A stretch of DNA of 20,000 bases, taken from the IMG/VR virus record IMGVR_UViG_3300037067_001926. One strand, 5' to 3'. The position numbers were made by a program, and so were the translations under genes. A model generated the notes under the pieces. The model had not been told where the DNA came from, ran no database searches, and worked only from the letters and a program-made list of their open reading frames with translations. The stretch is from an uncultured virus (IMG/VR IMGVR_UViG_3300037067_001926). Lineage: Duplodnaviria; Heunggongvirae; Uroviricota; Caudoviricetes. Shown piece after piece: positions 5,578-17,533 of this stretch (position 1 is the first letter of the stretch; each line of letters opens with the position of its first letter).

Positions 5578-5844
5578 TCACCTCTTGGGCTCGATCGCGT
5601 CCCCTTGTTCCAGAGTCGAGAGCGCGGCGCATGGTCCGAAGTTGTGCTCGAATCTTTGGATCGTCTTCCAGTCGCGCATCTCGTCCCCATCGACCCCCAT
5701 CACAGTGTAGGGATCGTTGCTCAAGTCCTGCCGCCTTCGGCGCTCGTCCTCGCGGGCTCTGGCCTCGCTGTACGCCTGCTGTGCAGAGACTACATCCAAG
5801 TCCTGCCGGTTGTTGCTTGACCGATAATCGTCTACGCCTGCCAT
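5578..5844 (-). CDS. Hypothetical protein, 88 aa
   Basis: GGAGG SD upstream; compact fit between neighbours. Confidence 0.7.
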   Translation of the reverse strand: MAGVDDYRSSNNRQDLDVVSAQQAYSEARAREDERRRRQDLSNDPYTVMGVDGDEMRDWKTIQRFEHNFGPCAALSTLEQGDAIEPKR

Positions 5845-5856
5845 AGGCTATCCTCC

Positions 5857-7026
5857 CTAATACCCTGCACCGAAGTCCCAACTGACAATCTCGGGCGTGT
5901 GACCTTGCCAGTAGTCCGCGCCCATCGGCATGAACACCTTCGAGTAGCGGTACTGATATGCTTTCTGGAAGCGGCCTTCGTCTTCGTTCTTCGCGTTCTC
6001 CAGCCCTTGTAGGAAGCGCTTCTCGTATACCTCCGCAAGCGTCGGGTTGAAGAACGGATCCTTCTCGTCCTTCTTGAACCGCAAGGCGTCAGCTATTGCC
6101 CCGTGTACGAAGATCGAAGGGTTGATGAACCACGGTGGCCGATCGTTCTCATTGACCAGATCCGGCCACTGTTTGTAGAACAGGCAGGTGAACTGCCGTC
6201 GGCTACTCGGAGCCGGCCATAGCTCGTGCTGGTAGTTGCCTTGTTCGTTCGGGCCTAGGTCCACAAGCTGAATCAGCGAGCCGGCATTGGTGAACGTCCG
6301 CCGCGCATCGCGGTGATTGACTTCGGTCACAGGGACGTGGAGCCGTACAGGCCATCCAGTCTGTTCATCCTTCATGGCCAGGATGTCTTTGAACTTGGAG
6401 CTGATCGTCAGGTACATCTTGACGATTCGGTAGCTCTGGGTAGATTCCGAGTCTGCCCACCAGAAGTCCGTGAGTTCCAGCTCCGTAGCCGACACCACGT
6501 TGCGGACAGTGAACACTGGATCAGTGACAGAAATGCGGAATTGCAGGCCCGCCAGGGAAGACTGCGTAATCGTCGCTCCAGCATCGTGCGTGTTCGCAAA
6601 CTTGGCGATAAAGCTGTCTCGCTTAAGCTCAACCACGGAGACTACTTCCTCGTCCGCATCGCCGGCATCCACGAACAGAACCGAGTCCTCTGTAATCCCA
6701 GTCATCGCAAGAGGGGTGACTTCGACGTAGCCAATGTCGTCGATCGCCGCGGGGATCGTAGTGCCCACAACATCATTCACCGGCCACGCTGTACCGACCC
6801 CGGTGACTGTGCGGCTGCCTTCTACGACTGACACCGTGCCGGTCTCGTAGGCGTCTGGGACGTAAAGTACTTTCGACGTAATCAGATCAGTCCAGTATGT
6901 GCGGGAGCCGAGCGCTTGGCGAATGCGATCGTTGAGCCAGTCCCTAATGTCAAGGGAACTGAGGCCGGGGCGTGCGTTAGCCACTCGCCCAGTCATACTG
7001 CCCAAACTGTCCGAATACATCGACAT
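5857..7026 (-). CDS. Head-tail adaptor / tail ring protein with inserted beta-rich domains, 389 aa
   Basis: N-terminus SLGSMTGRV matches TLGSMKSRV of the 214-aa ORF; ELWPAP and LVNEND match IHPAD and LVNDSD; central insertion GTVSVVEGSRTVTGVGTAW. Confidence 0.65.
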   Translation of the reverse strand: MSMYSDSLGSMTGRVANARPGLSSLDIRDWLNDRIRQALGSRTYWTDLITSKVLYVPDAYETGTVSVVEGSRTVTGVGTAWPVNDVVGTTIPAAIDDIGYVEVTPLAMTGITEDSVLFVDAGDADEEVVSVVELKRDSFIAKFANTHDAGATITQSSLAGLQFRISVTDPVFTVRNVVSATELELTDFWWADSESTQSYRIVKMYLTISSKFKDILAMKDEQTGWPVRLHVPVTEVNHRDARRTFTNAGSLIQLVDLGPNEQGNYQHELWPAPSSRRQFTCLFYKQWPDLVNENDRPPWFINPSIFVHGAIADALRFKKDEKDPFFNPTLAEVYEKRFLQGLENAKNEDEGRFQKAYQYRYSKVFMPMGADYWQGHTPEIVSWDFGAGY

Positions 7027-7037
7027 GCCAATCCCCT

Positions 7038-7090
7038 AAACACAAAGCGGCCTGGCAGGGTGCCCGTCGCCATTCCACCCTACCAGGCCG
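7038..7090 (-). terminator. Intrinsic terminator after the capsid/decoration/GYT genes
   Basis: Minus strand CGGCCTGGTAGGGTG-N13-CACCCTGCCAGGCCG (15-bp stem, one U-G pair) followed by CTTTGTGTTT. Confidence 0.7.
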
Positions 7091-7161
7091 TCCCCCCGCA
7101 GGAAGTCAGACTGCCCTCGAACCTAACCCCATAGGGGAGGGACCTAGGGGCCCCTCCAGCC

Positions 7162-7425
7162 CTATGGAGCGTAACCTGTGTAGCCCGTCTGGCCTGGGTA
7201 AGCCGTGTACCCAGTGTAGCCAGTGAGCCCGCCGTAGCCCGTGTATCCAGTCGGGCCGGTCTCTCCGCGATAGCCCGTATACCCCGAGTACCCAGACGTC
7301 CCGGTGTATCCAGTGACGCCGGAGTATCCAGTGTAGCCAGTGAATGCACCGTACCCGGTATACCCACTAGGCCCGGTCACCCCGACTGTTGCGCCTTCCA
7401 TCGAGTCGGTGTAGGTGTAAGCCAT
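7162..7425 (-). CDS. Small Gly-Tyr-Thr collagen-like repeat protein, 87 aa
   Basis: Almost entirely G-X-Y triplets (GYT/GYS); GGAGG SD; third codon positions vary between repeats. Confidence 0.85.
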   Translation of the reverse strand: MAYTYTDSMEGATVGVTGPSGYTGYGAFTGYTGYSGVTGYTGTSGYSGYTGYRGETGPTGYTGYGGLTGYTGYTAYPGQTGYTGYAP

Positions 7426-10457: not shown

Positions 10458-10799
10458 GGCGGGGGTCATGCTCTCGGCCCCGCCCATCATCGGGCTGGGC
10501 TCTTGAGTCCGTTGTCGCAATTCCGCGATCTCGGCCTCGAATGCTTTCCCAATGTTGGCCATGGGGACCAGGAGCGCCTTCAACGGGGGATGAACTCGAT
10601 TGGTGAGGGACAGCATATCTGCCATCCATTGTTCGAGTTCCCTTAGCTTTGCTTCCAACATGCTGACGGGGTCGACCATCGACGGGATGATCGAACGGCC
10701 CATCTGCATCATGGTTGGCTCAGGAGGAGTCGGCTCAGGGGCCGGCTGGCGAACCTCAGGAGGAACCATCGGAGTCGGGGCTTGTGGATAGGCACCCAC
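10425..10799 (-). CDS. Pro/Met-rich pre-scaffold protein with a helical core, 124 aa
   Basis: GTG start with GGAGG upstream; sits in the head operon. Confidence 0.75.
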   Translation of the reverse strand: MGAYPQAPTPMVPPEVRQPAPEPTPPEPTMMQMGRSIIPSMVDPVSMLEAKLRELEQWMADMLSLTNRVHPPLKALLVPMANIGKAFEAEIAELRQRTQEPSPMMGGAESMTPAAAAVPPSVGQ

Positions 10800-10803
10800 T
10801 CGG

Positions 10804-11091
10804 TTAACGCCTCCCTGGCTTGCTCTGCTCCGCTGTGCGGCTGCTCATCGTGAGTGACGCCGCGTTGCCCAAGCCCTTGATGGGGTTCATCCCCAAGGTC
10901 ACACTGTCACCAGTGGACTGGACTTCTCCGCCTTTCCAAGCGGCAGGGGCAGGCGGAACTGGGGAGTGGCCAAGAGGGATGGAGTCTCCGGTGATCTGGA
11001 ACTCGGTACCCTGCGGGCCGGAACCCGGCTCAGCCGTAGCTGGTCCGAAACCTACCGGAAGACTGTCACCTGTCTTCTCAATTTCTGCCAT
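10804..11091 (-). CDS. Hypothetical protein with three TGDS-x-x-x-G-x-x-P repeats, 95 aa
   Basis: GGAGG SD; repeats TGDSLPVGFGP / TGDSIPLGHSP / TGDSVTLGMNP. Confidence 0.8.
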   Translation of the reverse strand: MAEIEKTGDSLPVGFGPATAEPGSGPQGTEFQITGDSIPLGHSPVPPAPAAWKGGEVQSTGDSVTLGMNPIKGLGNAASLTMSSRTAEQSKPGRR

Positions 11092-11102
11092 TCTAGTCCT
11101 CC

Positions 11103-11163
11103 GAAGCGGGCAGTACCTCCCGCTTCAATAACGACACTAAACGATTGGCAGGAATTGCGTCAA
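11103..11163 (-). promoter_or_regulatory. Putative sigma70-type promoter of the head operon with a 5' leader hairpin
   Basis: TTGACG (11163-11158)-18 nt-TAGTGT (11139-11134); 7 nt later an 8-bp hairpin GAAGCGGG/CCCGCTTC abuts the GGAGG SD. Confidence 0.5.
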
Positions 11164-11266
11164 TATGAAGTCAAGTGGTTTGTTGAAGTTGACGCGATGA
11201 AGTGATGGAAAGGATTAGATTCACGGCTGGATGGTGTTGACACTGCTGGTGCGGGGCTTCAGGCGG

Positions 11267-11283
11267 CGTCCGCCGGGCGGACG
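11267..11283 (-). other. GC-rich hairpin just 3' of the last tRNA
   Basis: CGTCCGC-N3-GCGGACG; no U tract, so not called a terminator. Confidence 0.4.
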
Positions 11284-11286
11284 GTT

Positions 11287-11375
11287 TGGAGGAGGGTGGA
11301 GGAATCGAACCCCCACGGTTCATCGCCGTGCCTCCGGGTTCGGACCGGATTGCCGACCATTCAGCGGCACCCTCC
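11287..11375 (-). tRNA. tRNA-Ser(CGA), long variable arm, atypical (8/4-compatible)
   Basis: GGAGGGTG/CACCCTCC acceptor, TCCGG-TCCGAAC-CCGGA anticodon arm, CACGG/CCGTG variable arm, GTTCGATTC T-loop, encoded CCA. Confidence 0.85.
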
Positions 11376-11380
11376 TATAG

Positions 11381-11454
11381 TGGCTGGAGCGCCAAGAGTC
11401 GAACTTGGGTGGCTCGGTTCAAAGCCGAGTGCCTGACCGTTCGGCCACGCTCCA
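11381..11454 (-). tRNA. tRNA-Gln(UUG)
   Basis: TGGAGCG/CGCTCCA acceptor (U1-A72), CTCGG-CTTTGAA-CCGAG, GTTCGAC, GCCA end. Confidence 0.95.
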
Positions 11455-11455
11455 G

Positions 11456-11531
11456 TGGAAGGGCGGGTAGGATTTGAACCTACGATCATCCGGGTCAGAG
11501 CCGGAGGTCTTGGCCGCTAAACGACCGCCCC
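11456..11531 (-). tRNA. tRNA with CUG (Gln) anticodon, atypical acceptor end
   Basis: GGGGCGG/CCGCCCT acceptor, TCCGG-CTCTGAC-CCGGA, GTAGG-TTCAAAT-CCTAC, TCCA end. Confidence 0.9.
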
Positions 11532-11532
11532 G

Positions 11533-11607
11533 TGGCACCAGCCGCGAGGGTCGAACTCGCTATGGACCAGTTTTGGAGACTGTCCGCCTGCCGTTGGCGT
11601 GGCTGGT
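11533..11607 (-). tRNA. tRNA-Trp(CCA), atypical D-arm linker
   Basis: ACCAGCC/GGCTGGT acceptor, CAGT-CTCCAAA-ACTG, GCGAG-TTCGACC-CTCGC, GCCA end. Confidence 0.85.
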
Positions 11608-11611
11608 GAAT

Positions 11612-11688
11612 TGGTCGGGACGGCTGGATTCGGACCAGCGGCCCCCTGTTCCCAAAACAGGTGCGCTACCAGACTGCGCTACGCCCCG
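11612..11688 (-). tRNA. tRNA-Pro(UGG)
   Basis: CGGGGCG/CGTCCCG acceptor, TAGCGCAGTCTGGTAGCGC D-arm, CCTGT-TTTGGGA-ACAGG, ACCA end; T-loop reads TCCGAAT. Confidence 0.93.
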
Positions 11689-11793
11689 ACTGCAATTCTC
11701 TTTACCGCTTCGCGGGCCGTTGAAATATTCCCGCCAGGATTTTAACGGGCGATCCGCCAGAGGAGAGGACCGCCCGCCGACCCCGATCGACTA

Positions 11794-11867
11794 TGGTTGC
11801 GGGGCTCGGACTTGAACCGAGACCTTTGCGTTATGAGCGCAACGAGGTGCCATTCCTCCACCCCGCT
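11794..11867 (-). tRNA. tRNA-Met(CAU), initiator-like
   Basis: AGCGGGG/CCCCGCA acceptor with a 1-72 mismatch, A11-U24, TTGCG-CTCATAA-CGCAA, ACCA end. Confidence 0.9.
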
Positions 11868-11873
11868 ACAAGG

Positions 11874-11902
11874 ATTATGCCATGGGCTTGAGTCGAAGGC
11901 AA
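11874..11902 (-). promoter_or_regulatory. Putative sigma70 promoter for the fMet-to-Ser tRNA run
   Basis: TTGCCT-17 nt-CATAAT with an extended -10 TG; 6 nt from the -10 to tRNA nucleotide 1. Confidence 0.65.
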
Positions 11903-11911
11903 GATCAAAAG

Positions 11912-11986
11912 TGGTGGCCCCGGCGAGATTCGAACTCGCATCGGCGGAGTGAAAGTCCGCTATCCTGCCTGCTAGAAGACAGGGCC
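11912..11986 (-). tRNA. tRNA-Glu(UUC)
   Basis: GGCCCTG/CGGGGCC acceptor, GCGGA-CTTTCAC-TCCGC, GCGAG-TTCGAAT-CTCGC, ACCA end. Confidence 0.93.
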
Positions 11987-11993
11987 ATTGAAC

Positions 11994-12087
11994 TACCGCT
12001 TACGCGGCCGTGGGCGGGGAGCGGATTTCCGTTTCCGTTTGGGCTTGCGCATCCAAACAAGTGGCTTCCGGTAAATCTGCTCCCACG
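11994..12087 (-). ncRNA. Candidate structured RNA of unknown class in the tRNA-Glu leader
   Basis: Nested stems GGGAGC-AGATTT/AAATC-C-GCTCCC and GTTTGG/CCAAAC capped by GC-GCAA-GC, then CCGC-GTAA-GCGG (two GNRA loops). Confidence 0.4.
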
Positions 12088-12090
12088 AGA

Positions 12091-12759
12091 TCATTTCCAC
12101 TCCGGCGCGTTGCAGATCCATTCCGTGCCGGCCGCGGGAGCCTCGAATCTGGCTGGCGGAGTGTCCCACTTCTCGATCACTGCCACATGCGCATACACAT
12201 TGATCGACTTCACCATCCTTTGGAAGGGAGTCAGACCCATCGCCAGCATGTCCGTAGCGTGGATGTCGACGTTCGCGTGGAGGTCCGAGGAGAGCTTCCC
12301 GATCTTGTCCCCAAAGGGGTTGTCTTTACCGAGGATGTCCTCGCAGATGTAGACCCCGCCAGGGGAGAGGTGAGGGAGGATCTTGTCCAGCGTCACGCTC
12401 TGCTGGCCAGGGGTGTGCCCGCCATCGTCAATGAGCACATCGAGCTTCGGAACCAGCGTCTTGAACCAGTCCCAGAAGCGCGGCTCGCCCTGATCCCCGA
12501 TGTAGACCTTGGTCCAATCGTTCTCGTAGCGGGCGCACGCCGGCTGAATGTCAATGCCGTGGACCGTACAGCCTTGACCAAAGTAGTCCCGCCACATCCC
12601 AAGGCTGCCACCACTGTAGATCCCAACCTCAGCCACGTCTACGGCCGTGCCGCGGAACTTGGATAGGTGCCTATCGTAGATTTCGAAGTAGTGACGCCAT
12701 TTCCAAATCCCTGGTCCTGTGGTGTGCGCGTTGAAGTAGTCTTCCAGAGGGTTGCTCAT
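12091..12759 (-). CDS. Class I SAM-dependent methyltransferase, sugar O-methyltransferase-like, 222 aa
   Basis: KWRHYFEIYDRH, EVGIYSGGSLGMWRDYF, GIDI, IGDQ, DVLIDDGGH, LSPGGVYICED. Confidence 0.9.
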   Translation of the reverse strand: MSNPLEDYFNAHTTGPGIWKWRHYFEIYDRHLSKFRGTAVDVAEVGIYSGGSLGMWRDYFGQGCTVHGIDIQPACARYENDWTKVYIGDQGEPRFWDWFKTLVPKLDVLIDDGGHTPGQQSVTLDKILPHLSPGGVYICEDILGKDNPFGDKIGKLSSDLHANVDIHATDMLAMGLTPFQRMVKSINVYAHVAVIEKWDTPPARFEAPAAGTEWICNAPEWK

Positions 12760-13031
12760 TTGCCCTTCTTTGCGTAGAACTCCAAGTGAATCTTATTGAC
12801 GGGGAGAGGTTCGCCTGATTTCTTGCACCGCTTGATGAACTCACGCTCTGCGTAGTTCGGACGTCCTACGGTCACAACCATCTCCGTGGTTCGATCACTC
12901 TTGCGTGGCTTGTGCCGCCGAGTAGCCTTGACCACTTCGGTTGGGCTGATATACCTCGTAGCCCGTCGAGCGCCGCGCATAAGCATAAGCTCAATCACAT
13001 CACCGCAAACTCCGCCTGTCCCGTATATCAT
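12756..13031 (-). CDS. Basic hypothetical protein, 91 aa (start revised to ATG 13031)
   Basis: ATGA overlaps at both ends; AGGAG SD 7 nt before the ATG. Confidence 0.7.
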   Translation of the reverse strand: MIYGTGGVCGDVIELMLMRGARRATRYISPTEVVKATRRHKPRKSDRTTEMVVTVGRPNYAEREFIKRCKKSGEPLPVNKIHLEFYAKKGK

Positions 13032-15084: not shown

Positions 15085-17497
15085 TCATCCACTCCTTGTA
15101 CTCCAGCTCCATCAACCACTGCGGGATCTGCATGGTCCGCGTACCGCTGTCTACGATCAAGTTATCCCAGGCCGAACCCGCGTCAATGCAGCTAATCGTC
15201 TGTTCCCGCGCCAACAGATTCGCTATCCAGACCTTCGCCGGCATCCCGCCACAGAATACGAATGTCGCCCCTGGCTTAACGTGCCACATCAACTGTTCCC
15301 TGATCGCATCGTACTGCTCGAACGCATTAACTAGCGGGATCTCCACGAAGTCAGCCTTCAGCATGGTTGCCACGGGCTTGAGCCGCGCTGGGCCAACGAA
15401 GGTCTTTGGCGCTTCCGCTTCGCGGACAGCTCCCCAGAACTCCTTTACTGCATGGAAGTCCTGATCTACCCGGTGGAGAAGGCTGTTGTAGAACCTCTGA
15501 TCCCCGAAGGGGACTACGTTGACCACCACGCGGCCGTTGTCCCTCTTCTCACTCATCTTCTCCAGTTGCCAGAAGGCGGTCTTGAGTTTTTGCCCAAGTT
15601 CAGATGAGTATAAGTGACCATCGCAGTTTGCGCCAGTGGCACCGGCCATGCACGCTTCTTCTCCATCCCCCTTCTTAATGAATGAAATTGGGAGGCCCTT
15701 ACGCACGCAATCAGTGAGATATCCAAGCAGAGGATTACCCGGCTGCTCCTGCCGACGCTTGTGCCAGATTGACGTTTCCACACCGTCTGGTTCTCCGAGC
15801 GTCGATCGCACTGCGGAAACTACGCCCGGCCACGTACCCCAGTCGTGCCCACACAAGGTCCCCCCTGGCCGCACTTTGTTGGACCATGCTGCTATGTCCT
15901 TGATTACGCTGCATTCATCATGGCTACCGTCGAGGAATAGCATATCGAAGTATCCGTCAGGGAACTCCTTCGCGGCTTCCAGGCTGTCCGCCCGGCGGAC
16001 AACGAGGTTTGTGCAGTCCTTCGTATTCTCGCTGAACTGGCGGAAGATGCTGTCTGGATCGGCCTTCGCTTCGGCGTGCTGGATGTCCTCTCCAACGGAC
16101 CCGGAGAAGTGGTCTACGGCGAACACCGTGCCGCCGCCGTACTTCGCGGCACCAGTGCAGAGCGCGTGTGTGGACCGGCCTTTCCACGATCCGACTTCGA
16201 GGATCCGCTTCTTGTTCTTCGCGTTCTCGAACAGCCATGTGAGTTCAGGGAACACCATCCACCCTTCAATGTGCTTGTCCCCGTACTCGTAGTAGAACTG
16301 CGTATCGCGGAGAAACTCCTCATTGAAGGGCTCATACCGCAGCGCCTCCATGAGGTGATGCCTTGCTCCGGCCACGTCACCCATCCAGCCTTTGGCGTAG
16401 TATAGGTAGGCGTGCGGGCCGGCGCGATAGTCGCGCACCTGATTAGCGTAGAAGGGATGCCACGGAATCTCCAACGATGCCGCAGCGTAGGCCGCGGACG
16501 CGGAGTGATTCGACCGCTTGCGATAGTACTCAGCGTGCCGCAGCAGCGCTTCGCGGCGAGTCGGATCGGTGAAGAACGCCCGGCTGTACCATTCGAGCTG
16601 AGCACTGTCATCGCCGATTAGCCCGTAGGCGTCTCCCAGGAAGATCATCGACTGCGCCCGCTCGGCGGGCCACGCATTCATGTCGACGTGTTCCTTCAAG
16701 ACCTTAATGGCAGACTTCGGCCGGCCGGTCCAGAGCAGCTCACGGCCGAGGTAATGTAGCTGCCGGTCCCTGTTTCCAGCAGGATCCTCAGTCAGCTTGA
16801 TCCATGCGTCCCACCCCAACCCCGGCAGGTAGTTCGCCCGGTGCGCTCTCGGCTCTTGCCAATGCTCAAGATGGAAGATATTGGGTTGTACGAAGAGATG
16901 GTTTGGGCCATCTTCCTGCCTTGGCGGAATGTTTGGAATAGGGGTGATGACCTCGTGTACCGCACCCCGCCACTCGATTCTGCTGCGTCTGTAGAACTTG
17001 CTTTGGGTGAAAGCGACCGCCGGGGTTACCCCGTCGGGGTTATGCGCGAAGACGAAGTCGTACTCCAAGTGTTCCAGCCTTGGGTCGGCTATGATCTCCG
17101 CGATCTTGTCGAGATCCAGCGCGGTAAACGCCTCGTCTGCATCAGCCCAGCATACCCAGTCATTCGTGGCTAGACTTGCACAGAAGTTCCGTGCCGCGGC
17201 GAAGTCGAACAGCCGGCTGCCGTCCTGAACGATTGGCGGTTCGCCTCCGTCTACGAATCGCTGATTGATGGAATCGGCCAAGTCAGCGTCAATGGTGCGC
17301 ATGAAGCGCTCGTCAACTTCGGTGACTTCCGCTCCGCGGGCGCGGAAAACCTCCACCGAATTGTCGCTTGAGCCCGTGTCGACGACGACTACCCGCCCAC
17401 CACAAGCCTGGAAAGCAGCGAGGGAATCCATCAGCCGCGGGATAGTATTGGCCATATCCCGACAGATGCAGAGCACATCGAACGAAGGAGTTGTCAC
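15077..17497 (-). CDS. Multidomain GT2 + TPR + SAM methyltransferase + GT-D-fold-like protein, 806 aa
   Basis: VVVDTGSSDNS, FDFAAARN, WADADE, WRGAVHE (GT2); YLGREL, YSRAFFTDPTRREAL (TPR); LEVGSWKGRST, FLDGSHD, KVRPGGTLCGHD (methyltransferase); SFIKKGDGE...GMPAK...IDAGSAWD (GT-D/DUF1792-like). Confidence 0.88.
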   Translation of the reverse strand: MTTPSFDVLCICRDMANTIPRLMDSLAAFQACGGRVVVVDTGSSDNSVEVFRARGAEVTEVDERFMRTIDADLADSINQRFVDGGEPPIVQDGSRLFDFAAARNFCASLATNDWVCWADADEAFTALDLDKIAEIIADPRLEHLEYDFVFAHNPDGVTPAVAFTQSKFYRRSRIEWRGAVHEVITPIPNIPPRQEDGPNHLFVQPNIFHLEHWQEPRAHRANYLPGLGWDAWIKLTEDPAGNRDRQLHYLGRELLWTGRPKSAIKVLKEHVDMNAWPAERAQSMIFLGDAYGLIGDDSAQLEWYSRAFFTDPTRREALLRHAEYYRKRSNHSASAAYAAASLEIPWHPFYANQVRDYRAGPHAYLYYAKGWMGDVAGARHHLMEALRYEPFNEEFLRDTQFYYEYGDKHIEGWMVFPELTWLFENAKNKKRILEVGSWKGRSTHALCTGAAKYGGGTVFAVDHFSGSVGEDIQHAEAKADPDSIFRQFSENTKDCTNLVVRRADSLEAAKEFPDGYFDMLFLDGSHDECSVIKDIAAWSNKVRPGGTLCGHDWGTWPGVVSAVRSTLGEPDGVETSIWHKRRQEQPGNPLLGYLTDCVRKGLPISFIKKGDGEEACMAGATGANCDGHLYSSELGQKLKTAFWQLEKMSEKRDNGRVVVNVVPFGDQRFYNSLLHRVDQDFHAVKEFWGAVREAEAPKTFVGPARLKPVATMLKADFVEIPLVNAFEQYDAIREQLMWHVKPGATFVFCGGMPAKVWIANLLAREQTISCIDAGSAWDNLIVDSGTRTMQIPQWLMELEYKEWMNG

Positions 17498-17503
17498 CCG
17501 TCC

Positions 17504-17533
17504 ATTCTACGGACTTTGCTTGTGCCTTGGCAA
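17504..17533 (-). promoter_or_regulatory. Putative sigma70 promoter for the glycosylation operon (leaderless)
   Basis: TTGCCA-18 nt-TAGAAT, then 6 nt, then the GTG start; no clear SD. Confidence 0.6.

Follow-up and report, generated by a model that had tools for sequence, protein, structure and literature searches.

A promoter-like element abutting nucleotide 1 of an initiator-type tRNA gene in a phage tRNA array: a possible leaderless tRNA

In a 20,000-nt stretch of DNA from an uncultured tailed phage (hereafter, the window), the gene for an initiator-type tRNA-Met is directly preceded by a sigma-70-like, extended -10 element from which, by the general rules of start-site selection, transcription would be favored to begin on A1, the first nucleotide of the mature tRNA. 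This element is probably, at a confidence that we put close to even or slightly below it, a real internal promoter with a start at A1 or within 1–2 nt of it. Only the tRNA-Met would be leaderless, and RNase P could be dispensable, at most, for its 5' end. Promoter function, the position of the start, a triphosphate at the 5' end and any advantage to the phage are inferred from the sequence.

The phage tRNA array

The window covers the head and tail region of the phage, and the tRNA array is located between glycosyl- and methyl-transferase genes, which lie upstream, and the head genes. Among the open reading frames (ORFs) encoded on the strand of the array are matches to a major head protein (PHROG 9953, E 2e-22), to an SU10-type adaptor (Pfam PF24175) and to proteins of the virion and tail. 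Five tRNAs are called by ARAGORN with default settings and by Rfam at the gathering score, and relaxed ARAGORN adds tRNA-Trp and tRNA-Ser, resulting in seven genes in the order Glu, Met, Pro, Trp, Gln(CTG), Gln(TTG) and Ser, which are separated by spacers of 44, 105, 4, 1, 1 and 5 nt. The genes of the array and the components of the element ahead of tRNA-Met, in the order in which they follow along the minus strand, are:

11912..11986, minus strand: tRNA-Glu(TTC), first in the array (ARAGORN, Rfam)
11897..11902, minus strand: -35-like hexamer TTGCCT, matching the consensus at 4 of 6 positions
11881..11882, minus strand: TG of an extended -10 (TGG ahead of CATAAT; sequence read and promoter scan)
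11874..11879, minus strand: -10-like hexamer CATAAT, matching at 5 of 6 positions, 17 nt beyond the -35
11868..11873, minus strand: 6-nt discriminator CCTTGT, with T at -1 (sequence read)
11794..11867, minus strand: initiator-type tRNA-Met(CAU) with A1xA72, A73 and an encoded CCA, anticodon at 11835-11833 (ARAGORN and Rfam)
11612..11688, minus strand: tRNA-Pro(TGG) (ARAGORN, Rfam)
11533..11607, minus strand: tRNA-Trp(CCA) (relaxed ARAGORN only)
11456..11531, minus strand: tRNA with a CTG anticodon, G1.U72 and U73 (ARAGORN, Rfam)
11381..11454, minus strand: tRNA-Gln(TTG) (ARAGORN, Rfam)
11287..11375, minus strand: long-arm tRNA-Ser(CGA)-like gene (relaxed ARAGORN; 35.4 bits with RF01852, the Sec model, which is below the gathering score)

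The tRNA with the CTG anticodon lacks the U1:A72 pair and the G73 of the neighboring tRNA-Gln(TTG), which makes its amino acid identity uncertain. Given that the last five tRNAs are only 1–5 nt apart, they can be released only by endonucleolytic cuts, and the array therefore depends on RNase P-type processing. From 10500 to 13000, the minus strand contains no terminator-like site, neither in the segment from tRNA-Glu to the promoter-like element nor in that from the array to the head genes. Because there is no such site between tRNA-Glu and tRNA-Met, read-through into tRNA-Met is possible, and the precursors generated in this way would need RNase P.

Initiator features of the tRNA-Met

The tRNA-Met scores 57.5 bits with Rfam, within the range of the neighboring tRNAs, and all four of its stems are intact. 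The identity rules of tRNA-fMet are those of the RajBhandary and Varshney literature, and G2:C71, C3:G70, G4:C69 and A73 are the formylation elements of the initiator tRNA. All of these are present here: acceptor positions 2–7 read GCGGGG, and the ends of the tRNA are AGCGGGG...CCCCGCA-A-CCA. Positions 1 and 72 form an A/A combination that is flagged by Rfam as non-standard, that is, no Watson-Crick pair is formed, as is typical of initiators, and in the Rfam alignment, the D stem is GAGG/CCUC and includes A11:U24. The anticodon stem departs from the GGG/CCC arrangement of initiators in that it consists of G29:C41, C30:G40 and G31:C39, with the middle pair inverted. The tRNA is, then, like bacterial tRNA-fMet in the non-pairing 1:72, the formylation elements, A11:U24, the CAU anticodon and the presence of three G/C pairs adjoining the anticodon loop, and unlike it in the inverted C30:G40 pair, a form found in phage or metagenome DNA only. 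A further difference from the usual bacterial tRNA-fMet is the presence of A1 instead of C1, although A1 is common in nature.

A tRNA-Ile2 (carrying lysidine) or an elongator tRNA-Met is ruled out by the initiator-type acceptor positions 2–7, the 1:72 mismatch and A11:U24, and an initiator of the archaeal/eukaryotic type with A1:U72 is ruled out since position 72 is A. The D-arm pattern of this tRNA had no matches in viral contigs. The first 25 nt of the tRNA, including its short D arm (GGAGGAAUGGCACCUC), are identical to those of an initiator tRNA from a Saccharibacteria genome (MAG loci L236 and L161), and this identity points, weakly, to a groundwater bacterium of the Patescibacteria type as a possible host.

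The promoter-like element and the predicted start site

Within the 44-nt spacer between tRNA-Glu and tRNA-Met, on the strand that bears all the genes, TTGCCT is followed by a 17-nt spacer, TGG-CATAAT, 6 nt and then by nucleotide 1 of tRNA-Met, an A (11867). With a total motif score of 9/12 plus the TG and a 17-nt spacer, the element conforms to the sigma-70 extended -10 type (TGn followed by a TAnnnT-like -10 hexamer, with a -35 hexamer at 16–18 nt), except that the first position of the -10 is C, not T. In a scan of positions 10500 to 13000, this was the only promoter-like site, and the exact placement of a promoter-like site relative to nucleotide 1 is present for tRNA-Met alone among the seven tRNAs, with no site so placed for any of the other six. 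The original prediction had specified this geometry down to the nucleotide, together with the retention of the 1-72 mismatch as A-A and the replacement of GGG/CCC by GCG/CGC in the anticodon stem; all of this agrees with the minus-strand sequence, the non-standard pair flagged by Rfam and the three stem pairs listed above.

RNA polymerase prefers to start at position 7 after the -10 hexamer, with a pyrimidine at -1 and a purine at +1. Under these general rules, from which those of the host may differ, T at -1 and A at position 7 make A1 the favored start and G2 the second choice; of the neighboring candidates, position 6 is a pyrimidine, and position 8 is G2 itself. The purine at the 5' end of the tRNA-Met (A at 11867) is shared with leaderless tRNA genes. 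U at -1 is also preferred by the bacterial RNase P, so that the 5' flank of the tRNA-Met is equally consistent with ordinary processing.

How improbable is such a site? In the whole window, we detected 7 promoter-like sites compared to 6.3 +/- 2.7 in shuffled sequences, that is, no overall enrichment. The site before tRNA-Met is the sole one with a TG among these 7, and on the coding strand of the window, one TG-extended site was observed against 1.23 expected. For one given tRNA, the probability of a comparable site 5–7 nt upstream is P = 0.0006 under the composition of the window and P = 0.0019 when the composition of the spacer itself (45% G+C) is used; when the TG is required as well, P falls between 2e-5 and 1.4e-4. 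Across the seven tRNAs, the positional chance is approximately 0.004, and it is 10–30 times lower with the TG. Such a position is improbable in one window, yet it is expected to occur occasionally over very many windows, and alone, it is not decisive.

Another minus-strand site of the window, TTGCCA-18-TAGAAT (10/12; 17497-17533), has a -35 that shares the TTGCC start with the tRNA-Met element, and its TAGAAT ends 6 nt ahead of the GTG of an 806-aa glycosyl/methyl-transferase ORF, which is the geometry of a leaderless mRNA. The possibility that this second site, abutting the GTG, reflects a general habit of the host to produce leaderless transcripts was rejected because most other ORF starts have Shine-Dalgarno-like sequences.

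Related phage loci

The exact tRNA-Met is also present in one 1.6-kb metagenome contig (L265), where the flanks are identical, and in contigs of two metagenome runs (X1 and X2), of which X2 is unchanged across 11794-11902. None of the sequencing runs listed as containing this locus is an RNA run. The copies are near-identical and, therefore, uninformative on conservation. The near-identical X2 phage lacks 11285-11532, that is, both Gln-type tRNAs and most of the tRNA-Ser, and has nine other letters instead. Close relatives differ in which tRNAs the array contains.

When used as a single query, the capsid protein identified no relatives in viral contigs; in metagenomes, it has 186 homologues, some on contigs of 70–106 kb, and a profile derived from the alignment of 28 capsid homologues then yielded 74 related viral loci. 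No tRNA was called in 63 of these 74 loci within the stretch examined per locus, and in a blastn comparison of the array with phage records, the tRNA-Pro part alone matched (20 of 116 records, among the matches listed). In L284, 13 tRNA genes (5800-7409) are located downstream of the capsid gene, so the position of the array differs within the phage group.

The only diverged syntenic relative with a counterpart tRNA is L281, in which the capsid protein is 56% identical, and four other structural ORFs and a small ORF (w10425) match in the same order. L281 encodes a single tRNA at the equivalent place, upstream of the head module, with A1xC72, A11:U24 and CAU. This tRNA is preceded by TGGAAA-16-TG-TACATT, and the distance from the -10 to A1 is 10 nt, not 6. 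The coding strand of L281 contains 6 TG-extended promoter-like sites compared to 1.26 expected, and the other strand contains none; 4 of the 6 are found within 800 nt around the tRNA. The phage group, accordingly, seems to use extended -10 promoters. A promoter just ahead of the initiator-type tRNA looks conserved in this group, as judged from the predicted sites. The original prediction had looked to the spacing of the -10 in homologous loci, and while the promoter-like element ahead of an A1 initiator-type tRNA does recur in L281, the exact 6-nt spacing between predicted -10 and A1 is not conserved.

In an unrelated phage family (L001, L005, L247, L250, L252, L256, L259, L261, L263 and L264), a C1 initiator-type tRNA with the GCG/CGC stem is followed by tRNA-Lys(CTT). 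Between the L001 and L250 types, the 26 nt ahead of the tRNA are 100% identical, including TGcTATGCT, which ends 5 nt before C1; farther upstream, the sequences have diverged, and tRNA-Lys is clearly less alike than tRNA-Met together with its upstream element.

A1 initiator tRNAs and tight promoters in bacteria and phages

The A1 initiator-type pattern had at least 120 matches in the viral and at least 120 in the cellular collections. Among the 119 cellular matches listed, positions 72/73 are A/A in 86 and C/A in 14, position 72 is U in 14, and 5 were not read. The cellular matches listed come from Acidobacteriota, Chloroflexota, Dormibacterota, Patescibacteria, Nitrospirota, some Pseudomonas, Veillonella and others, and those with A1:U72 include DPANN and other archaea as well as some Patescibacteria. 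In all 10 cellular genomes that were checked, no gene other than the A1 gene has the initiator pattern. A1 is better regarded as one of several non-pairing bases tolerated at position 1 than as a change adapted to the phage promoter.

Sequences that resemble a -10 hexamer occur close to many of these genes. Among the 105 distinct cellular A1 upstream regions with A or C at position 72 (matches listed), TANNNT is found at gaps of 4, 5, 6 and 7 nt in 7, 22, 6 and 10 cases, respectively, compared to a background of about 3 per position. Under the full promoter criterion, a site lies within 20 nt of 44 of the 86 cellular A1xA72 genes, with the best site at a gap of 5 nt in 21 genes, 4 nt in 3 and 6 nt in one (matches listed). 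For the phage A1 tRNAs, among the matches listed, a promoter-like site is present within 20 nt in 6 of 95 distinct cases, with a gap of 6 nt in one of these, and the positional -10 profile has no clear peak.

Two bacterial phyla were used as controls. For Acidobacteriota (201 genomes), the 150 matches listed, of approximately 180, include 107 C1, 30 U1 and 13 A1 genes, and TANNNT is found at gaps of 4–7 nt in 16 C1, 10 U1 and 10 A1 genes (36 rows altogether). The unpublished genomes G029, G157 and G054 are represented by C1 rows, none of which is among the 36, so that they affect the C1 denominator only. For Pseudomonadota (151 genomes, with the gene found in 91), there are 131 matches (108 C1, 21 U1 and 2 A1), and only 2 genes have TANNNT at gaps of 4–7 nt. 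As far as these predicted sites indicate, tight promoters are a feature of lineages, commonest with A1 but also occurring with U1 and C1, the samples being phylogenetically non-independent. The pattern of A1 with an adjacent promoter-like site is present in cultured Acidobacteria; in Acidobacteriaceae strains such as Granulicella, Edaphobacter and Acidobacteriaceae KBS 146, the predicted -10 stops 5 nt short of A1.

In genomes of Acidobacteriaceae-like bacteria, Bryobacterales, Dormibacterota and Chloroflexota, the sole initiator tRNA is an A1xA72 form that begins 5 nt after TTGAC-17-TAnnnT; these tight loci include L130, L131, L139, L140, L150, L167, L171, L199, L203, L212 and others. Related Acidobacteriota have U1 with the same 5-nt spacing. 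We found no report of the tight A1xA72 arrangement of cellular genes in the searched literature.

These comparisons bear on two proposals of the original prediction. The suggestion that the change from C1 to A lets transcription make the mature 5' end directly holds insofar as the geometry favors a start on A1, but A1 is common, and tight promoters also precede U1 and C1. A link between the promoter and A1 is in part apparent for the cellular A1 genes, which are strongly enriched for a -10 located 4–7 nt upstream relative to the controls, but not for the phage A1 genes.

The altered anticodon stem

The combination of the GCG/CGC stem with the initiator acceptor had no matches among 185,579 species (one genome each); viral contigs contained 6 matches and metagenome contigs 21. 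Across these loci, all four bases occur at position 1. More generally, among the matches listed, G30:C40 and G31:C39 are kept in 114 of 119 cellular A1 tRNAs compared to 80 of 120 viral ones; in the remaining 40 phage tRNAs (L007-L126) and 5 cellular tRNAs (L127-L246), these pairs varied, with AGC/GCT, TGC/GCA, ACG/CGT and others among the phage forms. These counts indicate that phage initiator-type tRNAs vary a stem that is fixed in cells.

One reading of the stem change is that it might protect the tRNA from nucleases whose target is the anticodon arm of tRNA-fMet. A published account of phage tRNAs (PMC10264068) proposes that such tRNAs evade host anticodon nucleases, for example, VapC, a cutter of tRNA-fMet, and states that phages mostly avoid encoding tRNA-fMet. 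The tRNA-Met described here would be like the phage tRNAs of that account in being a phage-borne copy of a nuclease target with an altered anticodon arm. It is unlike the cases presented there, which involve the anticodon loop, in that here the stem is changed, and no such nuclease is known from the host of this phage.

Proposed mechanism and alternative explanations

The reading that we favor, tentatively and without granting it a full half of our confidence, is that the element is a real promoter that yields a leaderless pppA1 tRNA-Met in part of the transcripts, whereas the downstream array is cut by RNase P. A sigma-70-type extended -10 promoter within the 44-nt spacer would be read by the host RNA polymerase, and transcription would begin on A1 and, to a lesser extent, on G2. 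RNA made from this promoter would have the mature 5' end of the tRNA-Met in triphosphate form, making an RNase P cut unneeded at that point, and would continue through tRNA-Pro, tRNA-Trp, the two Gln-type tRNAs and tRNA-Ser, perhaps into the head genes. The downstream tRNAs, as well as any read-through from tRNA-Glu, would still be separated by RNase P and 3' nucleases. The initial proposal of a leaderless, RNase P-independent tRNA is thereby narrowed: the geometry speaks for it in the case of tRNA-Met alone, but the five tRNAs downstream need an endonuclease, and read-through from tRNA-Glu is possible.

An alternative that we consider unlikely, but to be taken seriously, is that the motif arose by chance, all seven tRNAs are part of one precursor transcribed from a promoter located farther upstream, and the 5' end of the tRNA-Met is made by the host RNase P. 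Several observations fit this explanation: the window has about as many promoter-like sites as expected from the shuffles, the case was selected from a very large scan, no minus-strand terminator-like site separates tRNA-Glu from tRNA-Met, the tight packing of the downstream tRNAs shows the reliance of the array on endonucleolytic processing, and phage A1 tRNAs generally lack an adjacent promoter. What a chance origin accommodates poorly is the low positional probability calculated for the seven tRNAs, all the lower when the TG is included, and the presence in L281 of a TG-extended site that lies just before the counterpart tRNA and belongs to a strand-specific cluster.

Less likely still, the promoter could be real and serve the downstream tRNAs, perhaps together with the head genes, with a start that is not fixed at A1 and might lie 1–3 nt upstream or at G2; the tRNA-Met would then be a precursor with a short leader that is trimmed by RNase P or tolerated, as are E. 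coli tRNAs with short leaders. The spacing varies, from 10 nt in the relative L281 to 5 nt in both the L001 family and the tight cellular A1, U1 and C1 genes, so that none is conserved, and no minus-strand terminator-like site lies between the array and the head genes, both of which are compatible with this explanation, as are the E. coli primary leaders of 3–7 nt and the continued aminoacylation of pre-tRNAs with <8 extra nt, as given in PMC7049720. By the usual rules, however, the favored start in the phage element is A1 itself. Finally, it appears very improbable that the tRNA-Met, with its inverted G30:C40 pair, is not a working initiator but a decaying copy, an elongator or a decoy, in which case its 5' end would have no functional meaning. 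The absence of the GCG/CGC stem from the cellular species genomes and the retention of the G30:C40 and G31:C39 pairs in nearly all cellular A1 tRNAs listed would agree with a loss of function, but the four stems are intact, the covariance score equals those of the neighbors, and the acceptor positions 2–7, A11:U24, A73 and CCA are all retained. Moreover, the recurrence of this stem in 6 viral and 21 metagenome loci, with any of the four bases at position 1, argues for selection and against decay.

Comparison with known systems and implications

To our knowledge, the 5' ends of all bacterial and phage tRNAs are attributed to RNase P, the accepted exceptions being an archaeon that lacks RNase P and the eukaryotic tRNA-Sec. 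The eukaryotic tRNA-Sec is transcribed from +1 and keeps its 5' triphosphate. The phage tRNA-Met would be similar to it as a single special-purpose tRNA that has no leader in a setting where RNase P is otherwise used, and it is dissimilar in that tRNA-Sec uses an upstream promoter of Pol III and differs in tRNA identity.

The leaderless tRNA genes of Nanoarchaeum equitans were reportedly described by Randau et al. in 2008. Leaderless tRNAs of this archaeon are also described in another source (PMC10100707). As in N. equitans, the predicted promoter in the phage array is placed such that transcription would start on the first nucleotide of the tRNA, a purine, with a predicted 5' triphosphate. 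N. equitans, however, lacks RNase P, and the arrangement is general among its tRNA genes, whereas here it would apply to 1 of 7 tRNAs and would involve a sigma-70-type promoter, and the neighbors in this bacterial-type phage array plainly need an endonuclease.

For E. coli, Table 1 of PMC7049720 lists leaders of 3 nt for trpT, 3–4 nt for pheU/pheV, 4 nt for cysT, 5 nt for serT and 5–7 nt for proK/proL. The phage gene is similar to these short-leader genes in that a bacterial promoter is located a few nucleotides from the mature 5' end, and for the E. coli genes, the same source indicates that 5' trimming is partly dispensable for charging. Unlike in those genes, the predicted leader here is 0 nt, a length that does not occur among the values given above. 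In the searched literature, which mostly excludes subscription journals, work on leaderless tRNAs concerned Nanoarchaeum, organelles and eukaryotes, and none of it bacteria or phages.

If the favored reading is true, the mature 5' end of an initiator tRNA would be set by a bacterial-type promoter, which would represent a third route to such ends, the phage supply of initiator tRNA would be freed from a host processing step, and a 5'-triphosphate initiator would meet formyltransferase, IF2, peptidyl-tRNA hydrolase and RNA pyrophosphohydrolases.

A broader possibility, which we regard as doubtful, is that a promoter abutting nucleotide 1 of the initiator tRNA is a widespread, undescribed arrangement in bacteria and phages, in which RNA polymerase makes the unpaired position 1 as a 5' triphosphate. 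Candidate examples are found in Terriglobia-like Acidobacteriota, Chloroflexota, Dormibacterota and some CPR lineages, and, among phages, in the present one, L281 and the L001 family. Where the spacing is the common 5 nt, G2 might even be the first nucleotide of the transcript. Such an arrangement would fit the drift of position 1 among A, U and C in those lineages and, if it exists, RNase P would be bypassed for the tRNA that every cell needs first.
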